This document shows, one piece after another, positions 31,884-42,135 of a stretch of 60,457 bases of DNA. Positions within the stretch are counted from its first letter, which is position 1; every line of letters starts with the position of its first letter. This stretch comes from Chlamydiales bacterium (GTDB taxonomy: Bacteria; Chlamydiota; Chlamydiia; Chlamydiales; CALTSX01): NCBI GenBank assembly GCA_051647685.1, contig JBOFEG010000010.1:1-60457 (forward strand), in the 5' to 3' direction. Below the pieces are notes generated by a model. The model worked only from the letters and a program-made list of their open reading frames with translations. It did no database searches and was not told where the DNA came from. The position numbers were made by a program, and so were the translations under genes.

Positions 31884-32274
31884 GGGGGTGTACAGGTTTC
31901 GACTCAGAAGCGAGACTTATGTGGCATGCAGAGGACGTCGGTTGGCCTCTTAAAAAATCCGATAGACAATCAAATGTCAACAAAATCCAAAAAGTTGATT
32001 TCAGCCCTAAGGCTGAACAGCTTGCTGCTTAATTCTTAACCGAATTAGATAGCCGGTAGCTCAAAATGCGATCAGGAGTTTTGAAATCTACCGTCATATA
32101 CCTGATATGATTATAGGTTTGGGTCTATAAGGGCCTATAATCGAGATTTACTTACAGACTAGAGAGTTGAAGTGGGGGCGGCTGCCAGCAAACTTTCGAA
32201 TGAATTAGCCGATAAGCATGTAGTCATATAAATTGAGTTGGCTGAGGACGAGAGTTCGATTCTCTCCACCTCCA
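31884..32274 (+). ncRNA. ssrA: tmRNA
   Basis: 5' GGGGGTGTACAGGTTTCGAC; 3' T-arm GAGAGTTCGATTCTCTC and acceptor CACCTCC-A with G.U pair; internal tag ORF ending LAA*. Confidence 0.95.
31976..32032 (+). other. tmRNA proteolysis tag frame (A)VNKIQKVDFSPKAEQLAA*
   Basis: GTC resume codon after AATCAAAT; ends GCT GCT TAA. Confidence 0.8.
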
Positions 32275-33015
32275 ATTCTTTGTACAAAGTTTGTAATCCA
32301 TCATCTGTTGGAAGGGATTATGCACTTGTATTGAGAGAGTTATGTCATTCAATTCTAAGTTCTGAAATACCAAACGGAGAAGTTGTCTCTTTTCTTCCAC
32401 TTCAGAACTCTCGAATAATTTTCTGGCCTGAGCGGCTAATTTGAGCACTATGTTGGCTGTAACATAAAAGTTATGATCCGCTCTTTGATGGCTTTCCATA
32501 GCCTTTATTCCTTCGGCTTGCTTCTCTTTATATTCCTTTATCTTTTCCAAGTACATCTTCTCGTCGATGATACCGTCTAATTTATCCTCATAGATCTGAC
32601 TGATTCGTTTTTGGAGTTTCTCTTGTTCTTTGCGCAGCGCATCCATGCTCTCTTTATAGAATTGTTCCTCCGATTGGTGAATTTCTCGCAAATAGTGAGT
32701 AATGGTTACAATTTGTTCTTCAGTGAGAGAAATTTGATCAAAATAGGATACTAAAGGCTTCAGCAGTTCTTCCTCGCGAACATAGGTTCGTTTGCATATT
32801 CCCTTTCCATTCGTACAACTATAGTAAATATGTTTATTTTTTTTGATTTCTGGAGTCACGATACATCCACAATGCGCGCACGTTATCAACCCGTGTAAAA
32901 TAAAGGATTTTATCTTGGTTTTATGGGGTTTGGATAGATATCTATCGATCACTTGTTGGACTTGTTGAAAAGTTTCTACGGAAATAAGTTTTGGATCTAG
33001 AAGCAAAAAAAACAA
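32224..33015 (-). pseudogene. 5'-truncated large serine recombinase (zinc ribbon plus coiled coil)
   Basis: LISVETFQQVQ (end of recombinase domain), GLITCAHCG...YYSC...C zinc ribbon, YEDKLDGIID; catalytic N-terminal domain absent; 3' end overlaps ssrA. Confidence 0.85.
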
Positions 33016-33337: not shown

Positions 33338-34189
33338 ATGCATATGATCAAAACTCCCGCATCTTTACTGAATAGACGTTTTATAGAAATAATATTAGCT
33401 GATAAAACCTATGATCCTTTGTATGATTTAATCGCTCTTAATCCATTGCAAATAGCTGGCAATACTGTAGTTTCTCCACTCTCTTGCTATTGTAAAAGCA
33501 AATTGTGGTTACTTAAGCATACAGTAAACTTACAAAGTAGAAACAACTCTAGAGAACTCATTTATTGTATCAATAAAGAGGCTGAAGAAGCTGGAAGAAC
33601 CTTATCAATAGAAAAGACAAAAAGTTTAATGAATCGACTTTCAAACACATTGTCTTCCGTATACGCGGTATATGGGAATAATCAATTAAATCCCACTGAA
33701 TTTACAGAAAGAGATCACGATCAAGTTAGAGGATTTCTAAAAATGAATAAAGCATCACCCTATTTTTCTTCGGATTTTTTAGTTGATCTCTCTTTCAACT
33801 TTTGTCAAGGTGCGTATTTAGTTATAGCTCATAATGATCTCTATAGGGATATTCAAAGAGTATTTGGAAATAAATTTAAACCAGTGTATATTCCTTTGCC
33901 CTATCCTTTCGAAAATTATTATCCCGAAGAACAAATTGGTTATGCAAAACAAGCAATCTTTGTCCTAACGCCCAATGCTCCGAAATGGAACGATGAGGAT
34001 GGAAACACTTTGTATAAAATGATCTATATTGGAAAAGAAGCCTTTGGGGTTCTAAGGCATCGAGATTATCCACCAGAAATCTGCTTAATGGAAAATGCGA
34101 AATACTTTTCTTGGCGTGCTAAATTGGGATATCTTACCTTGCGAGAAGAACACGTTGTAAATCATATAGTTACCTTACAAGAACAATAG
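33338..34189 (+). CDS. Hypothetical protein
   Basis: 283-aa open frame in AT-rich DNA; no motif recognised. Confidence 0.6.
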   Translation: MHMIKTPASLLNRRFIEIILADKTYDPLYDLIALNPLQIAGNTVVSPLSCYCKSKLWLLKHTVNLQSRNNSRELIYCINKEAEEAGRTLSIEKTKSLMNRLSNTLSSVYAVYGNNQLNPTEFTERDHDQVRGFLKMNKASPYFSSDFLVDLSFNFCQGAYLVIAHNDLYRDIQRVFGNKFKPVYIPLPYPFENYYPEEQIGYAKQAIFVLTPNAPKWNDEDGNTLYKMIYIGKEAFGVLRHRDYPPEICLMENAKYFSWRAKLGYLTLREEHVVNHIVTLQEQ

Positions 34190-34267
34190 TTGCTATTAGA
34201 TTTGCTAATCTAAGATTAATCTTGAAGAGTTCAAAATAGAAAAATGTGTGTAAAAAATAAATAAAAA

Positions 34268-34296
34268 TTGACGAAAGAATTCTTTGTCTTTACAGT
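34268..34296 (+). promoter_or_regulatory. sigma66-type promoter for the TPR/toxin gene
   Basis: TTGACG-N17-TACAGT, favouring ATG 34323 as start. Confidence 0.4.
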
Positions 34297-34322
34297 TTTT
34301 GCTTACCATAACTCCTTCTACC

Positions 34323-36377
34323 ATGCGAAAACTCAAACTTCTTCTTCATTGTTATCTATTAATTGCAACGACTACCCTTCTTGCACTGCCCAATAATAGT
34401 TTTCATTGCGTTAATCTAAAACCAGTAAACTTGTGTAGTCAATCTGCTGTACCAACTGATATTCAATCTATAACTTACGACCAAATTATCCACCTACTCC
34501 AAGAGATAGAGGAAGGAGATCTTGAAAACAAATGTTCGCCAGAACAATTAGAGCAAATCAATCAATTCCTTGCACTTCTAGCTGTCGAAGGAATTCTTCC
34601 CAATGATGATGAGGAAGAGGCAAGTATTACGGAAGATGTACAAGAGTTATTAGAGCATCGAGAAAATCCCCTACAACAAGCATTTTTATCAGGAGAGTAT
34701 GAACAAGGCACTTTTATTCCTACTATTTTGAACATAGATAGTTATGGCACTGTTATTCCTTGCGGATGGATCAAGAAGAGCTGGAAAAGCACAAAAGCCT
34801 TTGTTAAAAAACACAAGAAAGTCATCATTATCGGCGCTATTATTGTGGTAACCGTTTCCGCTGTTACTATTGTAGCCATTGCCTCTTCCTCAGGAGCTGC
34901 TTCTACTTTAGCTGGCTCTGCTGCAGCCATAGCGGCGTCTAATTCCTCAGATTCTGATTGGGAAGAAGAAGAGAGCTCTACTACTTCTTCTCCCTTTGAA
35001 TCTACGTTAAAAGAGGAAATTGAGTCTTTTAAGGGAAAAGTAGCGGAAGAAAATCTTCTTGAACCTTCTTTTTCTGAGGAAGATCTTTCGATGGAATCTA
35101 CAGGAAAAACTCTAGGTAACATCTGGGCTCATCAAACGTTGGAAGAAATTCATAATAATTTTGAAAGTTTATCGAGTAATAAAGGTTGTATAGAATTAGG
35201 GCACCGAGAAATTGATAAGAAATTCCCTATAGAAAATGATTATCCTTATAAACACCTTGCACTCGACTCTAACAACAAAATTTCACTACATCAAATCCAA
35301 GCAGAAAAAGCTTTTGAACTCGGATATTATCCGGAAGCCATTCGTAACCTAAATCAAGCTATAGATATTGAACCGAACAATTCCACACTGTATTTAGAAA
35401 GAGCTGCCTCTCAATTTCACATGGGAGAGTATCAACAAGCACTGCAGGATTTTGAGAAGTTTACTACGCATTCTCATGCTATCACTGAACAAAACCCCCT
35501 TTCTATTTCCGAATTTAGTGTAGGTTTTACCAAAGGGCTTCCTCAAGGAGTCTATGAATCGGGTAAGGGAATTATGACCTTTCTCTCCGACTTTGTGACG
35601 CATCCCGTTCATACTTCTGCTCAAGTAATGCAATCGCTCTCTACGTTAGCGGAACTCGTTTTTGAAAAAGAATGGGAAATGATAGGGAAAGCAATGGCTC
35701 CTGAAGTTTGTGAACTTGTGAAGGAGTGGGATACTCTATCTTCTGATAAAAAAGGAGAACTCGCTGGATACGCTATTGGGAAACATGGCACAGATATTCT
35801 CGCGCCTGGAACCATTGCTAAGGTTGCTAGTAAGAGTGTGAAAAACGCTAAGAAATTGGCTACGGTTTGTAAGAATATTAAGTTGGCTGAGGAAACTTTA
35901 GTTTTAGAAACTGCATCAGGGATTGGAAATGTTGCCAAAGTAGGAGAAATAGTCACATCAGGCAAAAGTATCTTTTCTATTGGCAAGTCTTTAGGCTTTA
36001 CAGAGAGCGAAATGTCTCATCTCAAAAACGCCGGAGTGTTAGAGAAAAATATTAGTGTGAGTTTAGAAAATCTGAGTTCACAGTTCCAAAGTGAGGTGAT
36101 TAAAGATTCAATTAAACAACATAGACATATTAAAATGATAAAAGAAAGCTTGACAAAACCCATAAAGGAAGTTGAAAAAAGCATTCGTAGTTATGAAAAG
36201 CTTATTATTGATCATAAAGACAAAATTAAAAATCCTCAAAATCATTGTTTGGGCTGGGAAGATTTACATGCAAAAAGGAAATCTCATTTAATTAATGAGC
36301 ATTGGCCTCAGGAAATTAGATTATATGAATGTAAGAAAAAAATTCTTCAGGATCTTTTAAAAGAGAGAGGAAATTGA
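34323..36377 (+). CDS. Secreted TPR protein with putative C-terminal toxin domain (polymorphic toxin-like)
   Basis: Signal peptide, amphipathic GWIKKSWK helix plus TM, TPR (YPEAIRNLNQAIDIEPNNSTLYLERA), pre-toxin-like linker, C-terminal KSIRSYEKLI.DHKDKIKNP...HWPQEI domain. Confidence 0.65.
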   Translation: MRKLKLLLHCYLLIATTTLLALPNNSFHCVNLKPVNLCSQSAVPTDIQSITYDQIIHLLQEIEEGDLENKCSPEQLEQINQFLALLAVEGILPNDDEEEASITEDVQELLEHRENPLQQAFLSGEYEQGTFIPTILNIDSYGTVIPCGWIKKSWKSTKAFVKKHKKVIIIGAIIVVTVSAVTIVAIASSSGAASTLAGSAAAIAASNSSDSDWEEEESSTTSSPFESTLKEEIESFKGKVAEENLLEPSFSEEDLSMESTGKTLGNIWAHQTLEEIHNNFESLSSNKGCIELGHREIDKKFPIENDYPYKHLALDSNNKISLHQIQAEKAFELGYYPEAIRNLNQAIDIEPNNSTLYLERAASQFHMGEYQQALQDFEKFTTHSHAITEQNPLSISEFSVGFTKGLPQGVYESGKGIMTFLSDFVTHPVHTSAQVMQSLSTLAELVFEKEWEMIGKAMAPEVCELVKEWDTLSSDKKGELAGYAIGKHGTDILAPGTIAKVASKSVKNAKKLATVCKNIKLAEETLVLETASGIGNVAKVGEIVTSGKSIFSIGKSLGFTESEMSHLKNAGVLEKNISVSLENLSSQFQSEVIKDSIKQHRHIKMIKESLTKPIKEVEKSIRSYEKLIIDHKDKIKNPQNHCLGWEDLHAKRKSHLINEHWPQEIRLYECKKKILQDLLKERGN

Positions 36378-36380
36378 AAT

Positions 36381-36653
36381 ATGGATGATGAAAAATATAA
36401 GGGTTACCTCCAAGATTCTATAGCAATCTTAAAAAAATGGGCTATGGAATCGAAAAAGAAAGCCGATGACTTAAATGATGACAATGATGATTTTAATCAA
36501 GGCCATCTAATGGCATATTTTTCAGTATTTTCTCTATTGAAACATCAAGCTTGGTCTTTAGATATTGATCAGAAAGAAATTGGTTTAGAAGACATAGATC
36601 CAGAAATTGATTTGTTGGGGCTTACTAAAAAAGAGGATATAGAACCAAAATAA
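36381..36653 (+). CDS. Putative cognate immunity protein
   Basis: 90 aa, acidic, starts 3 nt after the toxin-like gene stop; FNQGHLMAY...LLKHQA...IGLEDIDPE.DLL. Confidence 0.55.
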   Translation: MDDEKYKGYLQDSIAILKKWAMESKKKADDLNDDNDDFNQGHLMAYFSVFSLLKHQAWSLDIDQKEIGLEDIDPEIDLLGLTKKEDIEPK

Positions 36654-36699
36654 ATTATTTTGATATTCTTTTATATAAAATAGAGAGATTCATCAATAA

Positions 36700-37026
36700 A
36701 TGAACAAAAAAAAGGATATACAAAAAGACATTTCTCTTTTAGAACTAATTTTATTAAAAATTGAAAGATATTTTGATAATAAACTGCCTATTTCCAGTCT
36801 AATTTATGACTTAGAAAATTATTTAAATCAAATTACAACCATAGACAGATCGTGGAAAAAAAAATTTAGACTAATATGGTTAGATATTGAAGTTGCTTAT
36901 TCATTAGCTCTAGATAGTGGATTAGAAGAACCAACTGGTGAAGAAAAAATTATTGCTGAAGACTCAATATTGTCTCTAAAAAAAATGGCTCAAGATAAAC
37001 TAACTAACTTGAAGATAGAAATGTAA
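36700..37026 (+). CDS. Putative second (orphan) immunity protein
   Basis: 108 aa helical; LI.DLE.......W...F...W..IEVAY..ALD pattern. Confidence 0.5.
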   Translation: MNKKKDIQKDISLLELILLKIERYFDNKLPISSLIYDLENYLNQITTIDRSWKKKFRLIWLDIEVAYSLALDSGLEEPTGEEKIIAEDSILSLKKMAQDKLTNLKIEM

Positions 37027-37175
37027 GAACTTCACTTATCCTCTAAAGCGGATTTCTCCTAATAGTGATGAATTAGAAACCTATGCTATGCTACTGATGA
37101 ATTCAACTATTACGAACACGTCAACCCTTATTCTAAGAGCAAACAACTAAATTAACTCCTAATCAGACCCCTAAG

Positions 37176-37724
37176 ATGAGTTCTCAATCAAATCTACAAA
37201 ATCGCCATAGGATTAATAAAAAATACTACAAATCTGCAGAAGAGTACGATAAGAAAAAAGTTCTACAAAATACCTCTGACTATCTTAAAAACTACCTAAC
37301 TCCAAATAAAAATTGGAATAAACGGATATCACCAAAAGAGCGAATTAATCAGATAAGGTACTCTAACGTTAACTGGAAAACTGTATCTACCCATATCAGA
37401 AAGATGCAGTATCAAGATTTTTTGCAGACACCTTATTGGAAAGCGATCTCTGCCCATTCTAAGTTTAAGGCTCGGCATAGGTGTCAAATATGCAACAGCG
37501 CTTATAATTTAGCCACTCATCATAGAAATTATGCGATTCATGGTTTTGAACATGCTCATATCCATGAGTTAGTCGTTCTTTGTGATGATTGTCACAGTAA
37601 ATTTCATAATAAAATCCCAAAGTCGAAGTACAAAAGAAAAGCAGAATTTATAGTTTTCATTATAAACTTAATGGTGTTATCTGGATTTATAGCGCATTTT
37701 TTGATTAAGGAATATCTTAGCTAA
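37176..37724 (+). CDS. HNH endonuclease-like protein with C-terminal TM helix
   Basis: YQDFLQTPYW, RCQICN, THHRNY, VVLCDDCHSKFH. Confidence 0.75.
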   Translation: MSSQSNLQNRHRINKKYYKSAEEYDKKKVLQNTSDYLKNYLTPNKNWNKRISPKERINQIRYSNVNWKTVSTHIRKMQYQDFLQTPYWKAISAHSKFKARHRCQICNSAYNLATHHRNYAIHGFEHAHIHELVVLCDDCHSKFHNKIPKSKYKRKAEFIVFIINLMVLSGFIAHFLIKEYLS

Positions 37725-37939
37725 AATAACGTCGCATTGAAACAATATCTAAAAAATAATTTCTTTTCTTAGGCAAATTCCTATTTTTGTTTCTAGTTTA
37801 TACCAATCAATAGTTCTGAATACGTCCAATGACTTCCATTATTTCTTTAATTCTATTCATAATCAATATTTAGTTAAATTATATATATAAAAAATCATTT
37901 TTATGATATAATAGTTTCATTATTAAATAAGTTAAAATT

Positions 37940-39027
37940 ATGATATTACAAAAATGGGCAACATTAGAACCGAATTACTTTTTTAATAATGAATTAGAAA
38001 TTACAAATAACAACTCGGAAAAACCATCCTTACCCGAACTCTTTGAAAAAACTATTGGTGAACTTGAAAACAGTGAACTAGATGTTTCGTTAGATACTGT
38101 TATTCCAGCATTTCAAAAAATAGACAAATATTATAAAGAAAAAAATATCAATAAAGAATCTTCCGCTCTAACCTCTTCTTATGAGAAAATAAATGACCTT
38201 TTAGTTTCCAAAATATCAAAAAAGTATGAAGGTAATTATAGAGAATTTGTAGATAGTGGTATTACTCTTAAAAAGAATAATCAAACAGCGGAAGCAGGGT
38301 TTATAGATAAATGTTTGGAATGTAGTGTAAGTGTTTTAGACAAGTATTCAATGCCAAAAGGCATAGTTTATGAAATAATAAATGAAAAGGGATGTACTGG
38401 ATATTTGATTGGAATCCTTCACATTCTTACATTCTCTTATCTCGAAACCAATGCGCCTTGGTTGCTGCAAAAAATAAAGATTCCGATGAATTAATTACTG
38501 AAATTGGAACTAGCTATCAAAATGCTTCCAACCATGAATTAGAATTTATGCGAACTACAATGGATATAGGACTATCTGAACTTGCCATAAACAATAAAGT
38601 AAATGTATTAGGGTTCGAAACATTAGAGTGGCAAAAAAAATTCTTTCCTGAAGCACAACAATTAACACAATCTAAAGACTATCTCGAAAAGTTTTCTCCA
38701 TACTTGTTAAATAGATATGAGCACTCTCCAGTTCACCAAATTTATGAATCAGTTGAAGCTTGGCAACATGGCAATATCGAAGAGCAAAAGTTAATAACTA
38801 CTAAATTGATTGGAGCAAAAGCTAAAGAAGTCGCTTTTAAAGAGAGAAACAAAAAATAGCTTTCATGCCCCTCTATTAATTTAATAGACAGATTAGAAAA
38901 AATGGATAAACCTATTTGTATAGCAGTAGGGACAGGTCATCTTGTAGGTAAAACCGGATTTATTAAAGCTTTAGAGAATACCCAAAAATTTCAAATCAAT
39001 AAAATTGATAAATTAATTAATTTTTAG
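37940..39027 (+). pseudogene. TraB/GumN (Tiki-like) family protein, disrupted
   Basis: GYLIGILH in frame 1; frameshift near 38450; GFETLEWQ and ERNKK*; after TAG 38857-38859 the frame continues IAVGTGHLVGKTGFIKAL to TAG 39027. Confidence 0.75.
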
Positions 39028-39164
39028 CTCTCTAAAATAAGGTACTTAAATCAAATATACCATTTGGATTCAAAGATAAGATGTTTTATTAAAATATAAA
39101 ATTGACATAACAATTCCTTTTAAATAAGAGATAGAGTAAATATAGCTTTCTCGGAGGAAAATTT

Positions 39165-40100
39165 ATGAAAAAAATTGTCTATTTGCTATGTGCACTTATG
39201 CCTATTTTTACAAGTGCATTAGAAATCGATATTATTGCTAATTTTGATATAGATGAACTCCCGGCCAAACTACTGCCTATAAAAGAGAATTTCGATTTCA
39301 AAGTTGTATCTTTGTCGGATTATTTTGTGTGTAAATGCTCTAATGATCCTAATTTGAGTAAAATTCTTATCTTCAATCCTTATTTTGATTCCACCCTTAT
39401 ATCCAAGCTTCCGAAAGAAAAATTGATATTATTTGTATGGGAGCCTGAAACCTCTTTGCCAACTTCATTCTACAATGACTATTCAAGAGTGTATACGTGG
39501 GATGATACTTTAATAGATAATCAAAAGTTCTTTCGTTTTGATAACCCGTATCTTATGCCTATGGAAGAAAATACGATTCCATTTGAAGAAAGAACCCTGT
39601 GTACAATGGTTGTCGGAAATTGGACGCAAAAGCGTCTTGATATTCTTGAGTTTTTTGAATCTAATTACCCTAAAGACTTAGATTGTTATGGAAGACGACA
39701 ACCTAGAGAAACCCGTCTTTGGAAAGGATCAATTGCTGGACTGCATTCGGGTAGGGAAAAAATTTACACTCTTCAGAAATATAAATTTTGCATTTGTTTT
39801 GAAAACACAATCGGACTGTCTGGATACATTACTGAGAAAATTTTTGGTTGTTTTGCGGCTGGATGCATACCTATTTATTGGGGATCTGAAAATATAGAAC
39901 ATTATATCCCAAAGTCTTGCTTTATTGACTATCGAGATTTCAAAAGTGATGAACAGCTCCATCAATTCCTAGTTAACATGTCTTTGGAAAGATATCAAGA
40001 GTACATAGAAGCAATTCAAAATTATCTAAATAGCGAGCAGGCTCAGATTTTTTCTCCAGCATTCTTTGATAATCTGGTATATGAAGCAATTACTCATTAG
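39165..40100 (+). CDS. Glycosyltransferase family 10 (alpha-1,3-fucosyltransferase-like) with signal peptide
   Basis: YKFCICFENT...YITEKIFGCFAAGCIPIYWG motif; GGAGG RBS. Confidence 0.85.
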   Translation: MKKIVYLLCALMPIFTSALEIDIIANFDIDELPAKLLPIKENFDFKVVSLSDYFVCKCSNDPNLSKILIFNPYFDSTLISKLPKEKLILFVWEPETSLPTSFYNDYSRVYTWDDTLIDNQKFFRFDNPYLMPMEENTIPFEERTLCTMVVGNWTQKRLDILEFFESNYPKDLDCYGRRQPRETRLWKGSIAGLHSGREKIYTLQKYKFCICFENTIGLSGYITEKIFGCFAAGCIPIYWGSENIEHYIPKSCFIDYRDFKSDEQLHQFLVNMSLERYQEYIEAIQNYLNSEQAQIFSPAFFDNLVYEAITH

Positions 40101-40263
40101 TCTCGGAAAAAAATCCTAAAAACCCCTGTAATTATATATTACATAAAATTATAAAAAAAAATCATAAGGACCTGTCATCAATTAAAATAATTTTTGGTAA
40201 TTATAAAAAAAGTGAATACATGAGATAAAAACGCTTTTAGTTTAATCATCAAAGGAATGATTA

Positions 40264-41320
40264 ATGGCAAAAGCTTTTATATTTGTATTAATAATTACTA
40301 ATATTGCCTTCACTAATCCATTTCTGATTGATGTTGACAAGAAAAAAAATTTCCTAGCTGATGACTATATCAACATGCAGTCTCAACTTAGATCTATAGA
40401 TGTTTCATCCTTAATATCGAGTTATTATGAAGAATTTATTAAATTAGGCGAAGCGGACCCAAATCGTTTCTCTTACGATTCTTTTTATCGCAGATGTTCT
40501 GTGGGCACTAATTGGACTTTTATCGATCCAAAACAGGGAACACTTCCCGAAAAAAAACTCTGCAAAATTAATAATGGCGGAGATTGTTGTATTGTCTGTG
40601 TTTCCTCTTACAATAAATTTTATCCAGAACTTATGCTTTCGAATATTTTTTGGGAGAATATCCAAACCCGACTGGAAAAGAGATACAATATATTGGTGTG
40701 CCCTATGCATTTAAAATTTTTGCTATGCTAGAAGCGGAACAACTTGGTTTTAACAAAGTTATTTGGTTAGATGCATCCATGAAAGTGCTAAAGGATCCAA
40801 CTCCTTTGTTTGAAATACTAGATAGCACTGGTTCTTTTTTTACTACAGCAAATTCACTTTTCCCTTGGTGAGAAATGCAAGACCAACAAAAAAAATCCTT
40901 CCACAAACCAGATATAAATTATATGAATTAACAGGGATAGATGTTGCAAATAGCAAATATTACGTACCAGGCGGCGTTTTCGGATTTAGAATGGATCATC
41001 CACTTACTAAAAAATTTATAAATAAATACCACGAAATAGTTAGTGAAGGTTATGGTTTCATATCGAATGCTCCAGAAGAATATGTTTTTTCGTCTATACT
41101 TTCCCAAGATGGATTTAAAGAATGGAAACCTACAACGTATTTTAAGCTACTTTCTAATAGAAAAGATAAAATTACTAAATCAACTTCAAAAATAAAATTA
41201 TTCCCTATAAAACGTTTATTGACAAAAATACTGGGAAAAAAGTCTGTTACTACAATAATAAGAGAAGATCACAAAAGAGCCGAGCAAGAGGGCTATTTCT
41301 TTTACTACAGGGAGCATTAA
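40264..41320 (+). pseudogene. Glycosyltransferase-like gene split by two frameshifts
   Basis: Three overlapping ORFs in three frames (40264, 40650, 40865); YAFKIFAMLEA..LGFNKVIWLDAS; PEEYVFSSIL. Confidence 0.65.
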
Positions 41321-41328
41321 AATTTACT

Positions 41329-42135
41329 GTGATGAAAACACGTATTAAGATTTGTTTTTCTTTTATTATTTCTATCCTTCACTTTTATTCTATACTCTAT
41401 TCTATTTCTATCGATGAAATACTTCTAGAATCCCCTTTACGGGACTATCTGAGAGAAATTGAAATAACAGAATTACATACAGGCATGGAACTTATTGATT
41501 GCATTTATGCTATCAATTTGGATGAAAGAATAAATCGATGGAACCAATTACGGGATTCATGGGAAAAAAATGGACTTTCTGTGAATAGAGTTCAAGCAGT
41601 TAATGGATGGAATTTAAGTAAAGATTGTATAAAAACTCTGAGTTTCCCACATGATAGTATGCCAGGAGGAGTTCTTGGATGTTTTTTAAGCCATATTTCT
41701 GTGTTGAAAAATGCATATGAAAACCAATTTAATGTTATTTGGGTGTTGGAGGATGATGCAGGCTTTTTTGGAGATCCTCAAAAAATTACAGAACTTGTAG
41801 CAGCTCTTTCTAAGTTAGATCCACAGTGGGATATCTTGTATACAGATGTTAGAAATATTGGAATTACGCAGGGAAGTTTTGGAGTTTTACCAGTTAATAA
41901 TGAAGACTATCTCGATAAAAATTTTATGCGAGTAGGTAACAGATTTGGCTTCTATTCAGTTTTTATTTCAAAGTCTGATATAGAAAAACTTCTGCATTAT
42001 TTTATTTCTCATTCTCTTTCCACACCTATTGATGTAGAAATACATCGCATTCCAAATATTCGGAAATATTCTGTACGTCAAAATATAGTATCTTATACTC
42101 AAATAACTGATTCTACAACTCAATTCCCCCTTTAA
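41329..42135 (+). CDS. Glycosyltransferase family 25 with signal peptide
   Basis: YAINLDERINRW, RVQAVNG, GCFLSHISV, VLEDDA. Confidence 0.85.
   Translation: MMKTRIKICFSFIISILHFYSILYSISIDEILLESPLRDYLREIEITELHTGMELIDCIYAINLDERINRWNQLRDSWEKNGLSVNRVQAVNGWNLSKDCIKTLSFPHDSMPGGVLGCFLSHISVLKNAYENQFNVIWVLEDDAGFFGDPQKITELVAALSKLDPQWDILYTDVRNIGITQGSFGVLPVNNEDYLDKNFMRVGNRFGFYSVFISKSDIEKLLHYFISHSLSTPIDVEIHRIPNIRKYSVRQNIVSYTQITDSTTQFPL

Follow-up and report, generated by a model that had tools for sequence, protein, structure and literature searches.

A probable polymorphic toxin and its cognate immunity gene on a scaffold family of environmental chlamydiae

Polymorphic toxins are well known from free-living bacteria. 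As systems they were defined by Zhang, de Souza, Anantharaman, Iyer and Aravind (Zhang et al. 2012, PMC3482391), whose Table 1 includes a Sec/T2SS-dependent class with TPR among its repeats. Chlamydiae are listed for Ntox50 and other domains in the tables of that paper, and in its main text toxin genes with cognate immunity genes are regarded as rare exceptions in obligate intracellular bacteria, the Simkania URI toxins with their immunity genes being such rare endosymbiont cases. Among the literature found, chlamydial polymorphic toxin domains are touched on only in the main text and tables of Zhang et al. 2012 and in one sentence of PMC6520448.

Here we describe positions 34323-36653 of the window (the whole stretch of DNA that was analysed, 60,457 nucleotides), which very probably consist of a polymorphic toxin gene (P0001) plus its cognate immunity gene (P0002). 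The locus shares with the Sec/T2SS-dependent class a signal N-terminus, exchangeable C-terminal toxins, a downstream immunity gene and extra immunity/tip cassettes. It differs in that the chlamydial scaffold is not described in the portion of the main text of Zhang et al. 2012 that was examined, though the supplements may list architectures, and in that the tip and the immunity family of the window are both without a Pfam model. In the literature searched, we found no paper describing the scaffold, the tip or the Simkania homologue SNE_A04460.

Table 1. Positions of the genes and predicted protein segments in and near the toxin locus.
Feature	Position	Strand	Description and evidence
tmRNA gene	31884-32274	+	ARAGORN
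Recombinase/integrase remnant	32224-33015	-	truncated, overlaps tmRNA gene; Pfam, PHROGs
Probable polymorphic toxin gene P0001	34323..36377	+	684 aa plus TGA stop; ORF translation, 77 homologues
Predicted Sec-type signal peptide, aa 1-24	34323..34394	+	MRKLK plus hydrophobic run; hydropathy window aa 4-22
Acidic helical N-domain, aa 25-146	34395..34760	+	net charge -20; charge, full-length model
Lysine-rich helix, aa 147-166, plus uncharged hydrophobic stretch, aa 167-206	34761..34940	+	charge, hydropathy, model
Acidic serine-rich linker, aa 207-310	34941..35252	+	net charge -16; partly low model confidence
TPR pair, aa 311-395	35253..35507	+	Pfam
Family-defining helical core, aa 396-585	35508..36077	+	best conserved part; 76/77 homologues
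Putative toxin tip, C-terminal, all-helical, aa 586-684	36078..36374	+	net charge +7; family without model; AF2 pLDDT 92.2
Replaced segment within tip, aa 643-683	36249..36370	+	no DNA match in C2 locus (blastn C10 vs C2)
Probable cognate immunity gene P0002	36381..36653	+	90 aa, net charge -10, without signal peptide

All the features that the sequence-only reading had described are present in the sequence where it had placed them. The toxin stop TGA (36375-36377) is followed by AAT and then, in the translation, by the ATG at 36381 of the small acidic ORF, which is what had been claimed for an ORF 3 nt past the toxin stop; directly 5' of this ATG lies the stretch GAGAGAGGAA. The toxin ORF has an alternative TTG start at 34284, which would give 697 aa. 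Because a basic stretch plus hydrophobic run (MRKLK or MKIF kind, by eye) opens 30 of 34 homologue N-termini, the ATG at 34323 is the likely start, and the same comparison speaks for the Sec-type signal that had been proposed. Upstream, the truncated integrase remnant matches Zn_ribbon_recom of Pfam (35.9 bits) and the integrase profile phrog_95 (E 5.7e-23), covering positions 340-561 of the 651 profile positions only, and the toxin pair lies in an apparent decayed integrated element.

Behind the signal, the acidic N-domain, kept in 59 of the 77 homologues, has three helices in the full-length model (aa 52-64, 73-89 and 96-111), in agreement with the acidic helical domain noticed earlier. The lysine-rich helix and hydrophobic stretch are likewise as claimed: aa 147-166 carry eight lysines and no acidic residue (net +8), the following uncharged stretch is 40 aa long with the hydropathy threshold passed at aa 164-193 only, and the model draws one long helix through aa 149-188 (pLDDT 84-89). 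An internal hydrophobic segment was present in 68/77 homologues. The TPR pair was also recovered, with TPR_2 at 30.4 bits (cut-off 27) at aa 326-353 and 357-379 and TPR_11 at 26.8 bits (cut-off 26.8). A fold search with the whole-protein model returned TPR proteins only (best E 0.17) and gave no fold assignment for the core. This core shows 48-95% identity across 76 of the 77 homologues, up to a tail junction at about aa 558-580, and no Pfam family matched it at E <= 10 (hmmscan, aa 380-586).

When P0001 was scanned at E <= 1 against Pfam and NCBIfam, we found TPR-type and chance matches only, and no RHS, LXG, haemagglutinin, MafB, VgrG or PAAR family; the trafficking domains reported as absent by the first inspection (Rhs, FHA, LXG, MafB and VgrG) are indeed absent at this threshold. 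The proposed pre-toxin-like linker held in part. Its motif (GFTKG..YESGKG..HPV..GELAGY..GK.G) is present and falls on conserved columns, but a match to PT-TG is lacking. A PT-TG (PF14449) reading of the core was rejected after hmmscan of aa 380-586 gave no match at E <= 10; hhalign, run with a profile built from 30 cores on a PT-TG-bearing protein, gave a probability of 1.1%, a weak test, since the template was one sequence. The tip motif (KSIRSYEK..HKDKIKNP..HWPQEI..ILQDLL) is in the protein as quoted, too. The motifs quoted for core and tip are more than chance, because they form conserved columns in the homologues.

Judged by homology, many environmental chlamydiae share the scaffold formed by the first about 575 residues, and the last about 100 are one of several exchangeable modules, putative toxins. 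Among the 77 homologues, aa 401-560 of the core were matched in 76 and aa 606-684 of the tip in 24, so that close homologues carry alternative, unrelated C-termini. The relatives P0006 and P0007, 74-79% identical overall, change tail near aa 558. On a tree of the TPR and core part (71 rows; 6 of the 77 homologues, with tails under 60 aa, were omitted) explaining the six tail classes takes 20 or more switches, where 5 would be the minimum, which upholds the variable C-termini expected for a polymorphic toxin. Contigs from three other runs match 34200-35930 and then all continue with the same differing sequence. The scaffold family has at least nine tail classes, each with its own downstream-gene class. 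It was found in Chlamydiota only, in environmental chlamydiae: 111 of 301 chlamydial genomes sampled contain it, with up to seven matches per genome, and it was not found in the 30 genomes in this sample of one chlamydial family with genomes of about 1.1 Mb.

Six paralogous loci exist within the genome of the window. The tail of the paralogue on contig C1 matches Ntox50 (49.8 bits, cut-off 22.2), and the ORF behind the paralogue on contig C41 matches Colicin_immun (28.3 bits, cut-off 22). In four of ten homologues scanned, DUF4258 reached 19-23 bits, short of its cut-off of 25. Two of the six paralogues are broken, C2 by two in-frame stops and C21 by a split over three frames. No dedicated secretion partner gene was seen beside any of the six loci.

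The downstream genes vary with the tails, as had been predicted. When 41 tails and the 37 ORFs adjacent to them were clustered by blast, tail class equalled downstream-ORF class in 36/37 loci, a set that includes two duplicates (L014=L022, L019=L024); different tails with one downstream class were seen in 0 pairs of loci, and 557 pairs differed in both. The P0002 family stood behind all eight type-A tips with an adjacent ORF. Across metagenome loci collected with the closer tip alignment A4, the ORF adjoining the tip matched the P0002-family HMM in 49 of 61 testable cases, and the HMM had 55 matches among 1760 metagenome ORFs, 49 of them adjacent to a tip. Through hhalign, the P0002 family was also related to an ORF of a Leptospira weilii plasmid (96%) and to one of the Simkania plasmid pSn (99.9%). 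Each putative toxin module is seen, over the loci compared, to move with its own downstream gene. Orphan cassettes occur in relatives: C2 has a second immunity gene (94% identical to P0002), L033 an orphan tip with an immunity gene, and L014 orphan immunity genes that follow a toxin of another class. In the window, positions 36600-40200 showed neither orphan tips nor other immunity classes. A P0002 copy of 91% identity was found in other samples.

The tip is, by its sequence matches, a widespread candidate toxin domain without a family model and is not peculiar to chlamydiae. Its profile found 1319 cluster representatives at E <= 1e-3, of which 527 also passed E <= 1e-10, on scaffolds that belong to other secretion routes: the carriers are RHS, SpvB+TcdB_mid+RHS (Tc-like), eCIS_core, PT-TG, MuF+ART, phage portal, HINT and LXG proteins. 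In 146 of 150 tip carriers the domain ends at most 9 residues from the C-terminus. On RHS, MuF and HINT carriers of other phyla the tip is accompanied by a P0002-like gene, a putative immunity gene (the RHS example L068, the MuF example L115 and the HINT example of the Leptospira weilii plasmid have it behind the tip); the Tc-like, eCIS, LXG and PT-TG carriers have the tip module alone. The PT-TG toxin of Bacillus paralicheniformis and the LXG effector of the type VII secretion system of Bacillus safensis carry C-terminal tips of this family (E 1e-37 to 1e-40 against a consensus-type tip), but differ in their N-terminal trafficking domains, the chlamydial core being without a PT-TG match. Rhs/YD-repeat, Tc-like, MuF and HINT toxins likewise share the tip at the extreme C-terminus, whereas their shell, repeat and processing domains are absent from P0001. 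The resemblance to Rhs/CDI-type toxin tips proposed earlier was right for the RHS, Tc-like, MuF, HINT, LXG and PT-TG carriers, but among the tip carriers scanned no CdiA/FHA carrier was seen. For the undescribed chlamydial toxin class that had been suggested, the scaffold fits, as no description of it was found in the literature, but the tip is not confined to chlamydiae.

In the AF2 model the tip is a helical hairpin with generic matches only. Foldseek against the PDB gave a best E of 0.85 and nothing at E <= 0.001; the best VIA hit was a ribosomal-protein chain with Z 8.2 over 68 residues, within the background for unrelated helical models. The tip sequence matched no solved structure below E 0.28, Pfam at E <= 10 gave nothing consistent on sets of 19 and 20 tips, and NCBIfam had no match for tips or immunity proteins. 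P0002 and P0003 had no match in Pfam or PHROGs, and a consensus-type tip had no tblastn match in the phage collection. Ntox28 (PF15605) was considered for the tip and rejected: its atlas score was only 0.75, and it was absent from the Pfam lists at E <= 10 for the 19 and 20 tips. A plain hairpin without an enzyme-like fold match, in a family for which neither Pfam nor NCBIfam assigns an activity to any member, might suggest that the tip is no toxin and serves as an adaptor or oligomerisation module, with the small ORF as its chaperone or partner. We consider this highly improbable, as the place of the tip in RHS, Tc-like, MuF, HINT, LXG and PT-TG proteins, their extreme C-terminus, is exactly that of toxin domains, and as Ntox50 and DUF4258-like modules take its place on other copies of the chlamydial scaffold.

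For the toxin reading, column conservation shows H602, S623, H631, K634, N637-P638 and W661-P662 kept in the tip of the window. A nuclease activity is possible, and we put it forward tentatively. The tip of the window is also unusual. E670, conserved at 93%, is C, and Q671, conserved at 90%, is K; D649 and K660 are altered as well. Over its last 41 residues, its identity to 18 other type-A tips is 32-44%; those tips are 64% identical to one another. At the DNA level, blastn of C10 against C2 showed 87% identity up to 36248, none over 36249-36370 and 94.7% over the immunity gene.

The predicted complex of tip and P0002 supported the pairing. Its ipSAE was 0.66 (median of three runs), against 0.01 for the best control, and the ipSAE mark is one reached by 58/80 solved complexes and 2/110 mismatched pairs; this calibration holds only roughly for the custom alignments with which the model was fed. 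The runs shared at least 84% of contacts, with a partner pLDDT of at least 84. The complex expected between the tip and the small ORF therefore passed its controls (0.66 vs 0.01). Of the 19 tip residues that would contact the immunity protein, 15 lie in the replaced segment, and the altered residues 649, 651, 660 and 671 are among those contacts in the model, as expected of a specificity switch.

The same changes might be read as damage. As E670 and Q671 are replaced and the last 41 residues diverge, the tip of the window may be weakened or dead, so that the scaffold would be a toxin family, this allele would have lost its activity, and the immunity gene would still be useful against toxins of relatives. 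The changes at D649 and K660, the visible decay of two of the six paralogues (C2 and C21) and the position within an apparently decayed integrated element point the same way. However, the 684-codon frame is unbroken, the conserved set from H602 to W661-P662 is retained, the altered residues lie at the predicted immunity contacts, and immunity copies of 94% and 91% identity are kept on C2 and in other samples. We regard a disarmed allele as quite unlikely.

A close comparison is Simkania negevensis Z, where the chromosomal SNE_A04460 and an origin-spanning gene of pSn, followed by WP_013935110.1, have the same scaffold, tip class and immunity family. These homologues differ from P0001 in keeping E670, Q671 and the common last helix, which is replaced in the window. 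The Simkania toxin homologues are annotated as hypothetical proteins only. Colicin/immunity and barnase/barstar pairs are alike in joining a basic toxin domain to a small acidic neutraliser encoded downstream (here predicted), and the Colicin_immun match behind one paralogue is a further likeness to the colicin pairs; but the tip and P0002 have no sequence or fold relation to either, and the likeness is one of logic only.

We propose that Sec would export the toxin and that the lysine-rich and hydrophobic segment would hold it in the membrane or later insert it there, while the TPR and core part would present the tip. The basic tip would act in the cytoplasm of a neighbouring bacterium without the matching immunity protein, its likeliest activity being that of a metal-independent nuclease that draws on the conserved His602/His631/Lys634 set. 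P0002, which is acidic and has no signal, would bind the last helix of the tip and the preceding loop, and would block the tip in the producer and in cells of its kin. The locus itself may have arisen when the 3' end of the tip and the immunity gene were replaced together. We infer the delivery role of the TPR pair, and likewise a co-infecting bacterium as the target. One topology issue is that the lysines of aa 147-166 would lie on the predicted periplasmic side; with a cleaved signal and a single membrane span, moreover, the toxin half would stay in the producer cytoplasm, a topology that does not account for export.

Chlamydial Inc proteins are marked by a type III secretion signal and by a bilobed hydrophobic domain some 40-60 aa long. 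The organism comes from an obligately intracellular phylum, and the uncharged stretch of P0001 is about as long as an Inc bilobed domain, so we also considered a host-directed membrane protein of this kind: exported by type III or Sec, it would insert the stretch into the inclusion or host membrane with the tip facing the host cytosol, where it would attack host nucleic acids or proteins, and the small ORF would only guard the producer before export. In P0001, however, only the first lobe of the stretch is strongly hydrophobic, the N-terminus is Sec-like, as in most of the 34 homologues printed, and by eye the C1 and C20 paralogues have no internal hydrophobic segment. In the main text of Zhang et al. 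2012 (PMC3482391) many intracellular toxin-like proteins, some with TPR/Sel1, are held to be host-aimed, and adjacent immunity genes are read as a sign of inter-bacterial conflict. Such genes here vary strictly with the tips and also exist without their toxin, as on C2 and behind the other-class toxin in L014. We hold the host effector to be unlikely; on the question of the target alone, we lean slightly toward another bacterium rather than the host.

We might further speculate, though as a whole it is rather doubtful, that the signal, acidic domain, lysine-rich anchor, TPR pair and core form a self-contained, Chlamydiota-specific delivery device and thereby a trafficking class of polymorphic toxins that would be new. 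With this device, obligate intracellular bacteria could intoxicate rival chlamydiae living in the same host cell or inclusion, with the anchor inserting into the membrane of the rival (or of the inclusion), the TPR-core part presenting exchangeable tips, and the tip representing a new family of helical nucleases in which immunity specificity is set by the last helix. The locus defines a large putative toxin/immunity pair, with the 1319 cluster representatives found for its tip, that has no Pfam or NCBIfam model and no fold match. The scaffold family offers a handle on the export route, and it makes testable whether environmental chlamydiae fight one another in shared hosts.

Searching 5.8 billion protein clusters, we found 77 homologues of the window protein (P0001), a candidate polymorphic toxin; the named ones were from Parachlamydiales, Simkania, Rhabdochlamydia and two MAGs labelled 'Verrucomicrobia'. 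The helical core (aa 401-560) was matched in 76 of the 77 and the last 79 residues in just 24. Comparing the sequences after the core, we found that several unrelated tails start past a common linker, at about aa 558-580, and that the homologues P0006 and P0007 carry a different tail despite 79% and 74% overall identity to the window protein. A maximum likelihood tree was made from the TPR+core part for 71 rows, omitting the six homologues whose tails are shorter than 60 residues; on it, the six tail classes defined by blast clustering needed at least 20 changes, the smallest possible number being 5. The window's class alone accounted for 12 changes, nine of them forced by well-supported branches.

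The tail junction is also visible at population level. Public contigs from three other runs, belonging to three studies, fit window positions 34200-35930 with 96-97 differences in two contigs and 40 over the last 514 bases in one; past 35930 all three share their next 30 letters, which differ from the window's. The commonest tail of the scaffold (32 of the 71 rows; loci L014-L043, proteins P0030-P0076) is a module of about 110 aa with the motifs GIPENF..YVHP..IRVMPGKPHSP..QQKPYV..EAHIP, and its partner is an ORF of about 120 aa (..DKEYQKRVWI..PEW..). Pfam listed no family for this tail in the three carriers scanned whole.

Judged by eye, 30 of 34 homologue N-termini have a basic stretch plus a hydrophobic run at their very start (MRKLK../MKIF.. 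type); for this reason the ATG was preferred to an upstream TTG as start, and a Sec-type signal was marked. The TPR pair was the sole Pfam finding in the window protein (aa 326-379, TPR_2, 30.4 bits, cut-off 27). The Pfam scan detected none of RHS, LXG, haemagglutinin, MafB, VgrG and PAAR, and NCBIfam gave nothing beyond the Pfam result. The AlphaFold2 model of the whole protein, built on an alignment of 55 sequences, is all-helical (mean pLDDT 73), and it is confident in the N-domain, the K-rich/anchor helix, the TPRs, the core and the tip and not confident in the linkers. A cleaved signal plus a single span would leave the toxin half cytoplasmic, a topology for which the lysines are on the wrong side. 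By eye, the internal hydrophobic segment is absent from the printed sequences of the paralogues on contigs C1 and C20.

Features of the window, of the window protein and of two paralogues in the same genome (G000)
Feature	Position	Strand	Remark
tmRNA gene	31884-32274		tag peptide GSSKCDQEF
283-aa ORF flanking the toxin pair	33338-34189		weak, sub-threshold likeness to phage major head protein
Toxin ORF	34323-36377	+	684 residues counted from ATG
182-aa HNH endonuclease-like ORF flanking the toxin pair	37176-37724		phrog_119, E 3.5e-8
Hydrophobic segment, window protein	aa 4-22		hydropathy
Acidic domain, window protein	aa 25-146		net charge -20
Lysine stretch, window protein	aa 147-166		eight Lys, zero acidic residues
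Uncharged 40-residue segment, window protein	aa 167-206		hydropathy peak at 164-193
Acidic, Ser-rich linker, window protein	after the uncharged segment		net charge -16
Broken paralogue (L009)	C2 31081-34032		81% identical to window gene; two in-frame stops
Paralogue split across three frames (L011)	C21 53846-56884		tail end ..NAWVVTE

The window's genome (1.2 Mb, 42 contigs) has six loci of the scaffold family. Ntox50 forms the end of the C1 copy (49.8 bits, against a cut-off of 22.2) and, in truncated form, that of the C20 copy. Downstream of the C41 copy, the ORF scores 28.3 bits with Colicin_immun (cut-off 22), and DUF4258 fell slightly under threshold in four of ten homologues scanned. From such matches, the alternative ends of the scaffold appear to be known toxin modules, each with its own immunity genes. 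The broken C2 paralogue adjoins tRNA-Tyr and tRNA-Thr. Behind the split C21 paralogue lie two tandem 193-aa genes; its tail and downstream classes were seen again in loci L039, L040 and L048, and Pfam gave no family for either class.

For the tails and, independently, for the first ORF adjoining each of them downstream, blast clusters were formed with loci from the window's genome, seven species genomes and a 151-genome sample of the order. Nine tail clusters corresponded one-to-one to downstream clusters, with 36 of 37 loci concordant (two loci were retrieved twice, by different tools: L014=L022 and L019=L024), and no pair among the 37 combined different tails with the same downstream class. 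In L044, the sole discordant locus, an overlapping spurious ORF was taken first; the next ORF resembles the expected class and is interrupted by the locus end. Type-A tips, the class of the window's tip, were followed by relatives of the 90-aa protein P0002 in 8 of 8 cases, and a ninth was truncated, without an adjacent ORF. Orphan elements also occur: in L033 a lone tip is accompanied by an immunity gene of its own, L014 contains orphan immunity genes of two other classes, and C2 has a second immunity gene.

The tip appears to be a widespread toxin domain without an existing family model. Its profile, made from 19 chlamydial tails and searched against 1.84 billion cluster representatives, matched 1319 proteins at E <= 1e-3 and 527 at E <= 1e-10, and the domain ended at most nine residues from the C-terminus in 146 of 150. 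Pfam and NCBIfam models matched the tip in none of 19 chlamydial and 20 diverse members. The scanned carriers had RHS repeats, SpvB+FG-GAP+TcdB_mid+RHS, eCIS_core, PT-TG, MuF with ADP-ribosyltransferase, or phage portal domains, and many shorter ones gave no family. Named carriers included a 'pre-toxin TG domain-containing protein' of Bacillus paralicheniformis, a 'T7SS effector LXG polymorphic toxin' of Bacillus safensis, a 'polymorphic toxin-type HINT domain-containing protein' on Leptospira weilii plasmids, one RHS protein and one with the PAAR motif (PF05488). In metagenome locus L115 the tip stands behind MuF and ADP-ribosyltransferase domains of one protein, and in L103 it forms a fusion with an entire phage portal protein.

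The confident tip model (pLDDT 92.2) starts with two short helices and continues into a long helical hairpin, and searches against solved structures by sequence and fold found no specific structural relative. The polar positions that the family conserves are H602 (GGKH motif), S623, K626, H631, K634 and N637-P638, together with D649, R651, W661-P662, E670 and Q671. Since the tip is basic, its partner acidic and a His/His/Lys set conserved, we might speculate that the tip is a nuclease. The core motif WDTLS....GELAGY..GKHG.DI (aa 469-491) resembles the tip motif W.DL.....L...HWP.EI (aa 645-665; consensus WDKLDPRQQ.ALINKKWP.DI); hhalign aligned the two stretches with a probability of only 1.1%, and the likeness is a curiosity.

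Three bases, AAT, separate the toxin stop TGA (36375-36377) from the ATG of the 90-residue P0002, and a purine-rich stretch lies immediately upstream of this ATG. P0002 has a net charge of -10 and no signal peptide. Scanning metagenome contigs with consensus-type tips as queries, we found 71 loci, 61 of them testable (tip ORF ending inside the locus, followed by 240 bases or more). We made an HMM of the small chlamydial ORFs of the P0002 family; it matched the adjacent ORF in 49 of these 61 (45 at E <= 1e-3), and 49 of its 55 hits among the 1760 ORFs of the metagenome loci adjoin a tip; several of the 12 misses have similar-looking small acidic ORFs out of HMM reach. The P0002-family profile gave 96% for the ORF behind the Leptospira plasmid toxin and 99.9% for the Simkania plasmid one. 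Judged from these matches, P0002 is probably a member of a cognate immunity family present in other phyla too. The predicted complex of tip and P0002 scored 0.66, the best of three controls 0.01; the 0.66 mark was attained by 58 of 80 solved complexes vs 2 of 110 mismatched pairs. Three runs of the model had at least 84% of contacts in common, with partner pLDDT of at least 84. The predicted complex thus favours tip-P0002 binding and does not demonstrate it. Directly behind the P0002 gene lies a 108-aa ORF (P0003, 36700-37026) without a match in Pfam, NCBIfam or PHROGs and unlike the immunity classes collected here; it could be one more orphan immunity gene or have no significance.

The window's copy and the broken C2 paralogue share 87% DNA identity over 34234-36248. 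Positions 36249-36370 (codons 643-683) have no DNA match in that paralogue, and from 36371 onward the window matches the second of two C2 immunity genes at 94.7%. These two tandem genes belong to the P0002 family, the first being 39% and the second 94% identical to P0002. Identity of the replaced segment to 18 other type-A tips is 32-44%, as against 64% among those tips themselves, and 15 of the 19 tip residues predicted in contact with P0002 fall within this segment. Decay of the window's tip is compatible with the same data, since the conserved E670 and Q671 are missing from it; we read the data as a cassette replacement that would have switched immunity specificity in the window copy.

The toxin pair lies just downstream of the tmRNA gene. 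A truncated recombinase/integrase ORF of the opposite strand extends over the 3' end of this gene (region 31884-33015), which suggests an old integration event at ssrA. The flanking 283-aa ORF matched phrog_1357 (E 2.9e-5) and TIGR04387 (23 bits, cut-off 60), and the HNH endonuclease-like ORF has a hydrophobic C-terminus. The DNA around the toxin pair and the remnants has 29-31% G+C, vs about 35% elsewhere in the window; the fall begins at the toxin gene end, with 0.29-0.31 across 36001-42000. Because of the tmRNA position, truncated integrase, head remnant, HNH gene and low G+C, the toxin pair looks to be seated in a decayed integrated element. At 37940-38859 an ORF of 184 aa overlaps a second one of 155 aa; the second has a sub-threshold TraB/PrgY/GumN match (E 4e-4), and a frameshift may have divided a single gene here.

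The core was found in 41 of 151 sampled genomes of the order and in 111 of 301 of the phylum, with up to seven matches per genome, and in none of the 30 genomes of one family with genomes of about 1.1 Mb. In Simkania negevensis Z, members of the family are encoded both chromosomally (SNE_A04460) and on the conjugative plasmid, under the annotation 'hypothetical'. In the survey of Zhang et al. 2012 (PMC3482391), Ntox50 and other domains are listed for chlamydiae, TPR is among the repeats of Sec-dependent toxins, and Simkania URI toxins with immunity genes are given as rare endosymbiont cases; no description of the scaffold was found in the portion of its main text consulted, nor through literature searches. 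Our choice between a rival chlamydia and the host as the presumed victim is based on how strictly tips pair with immunity genes and on the orphan immunity genes.
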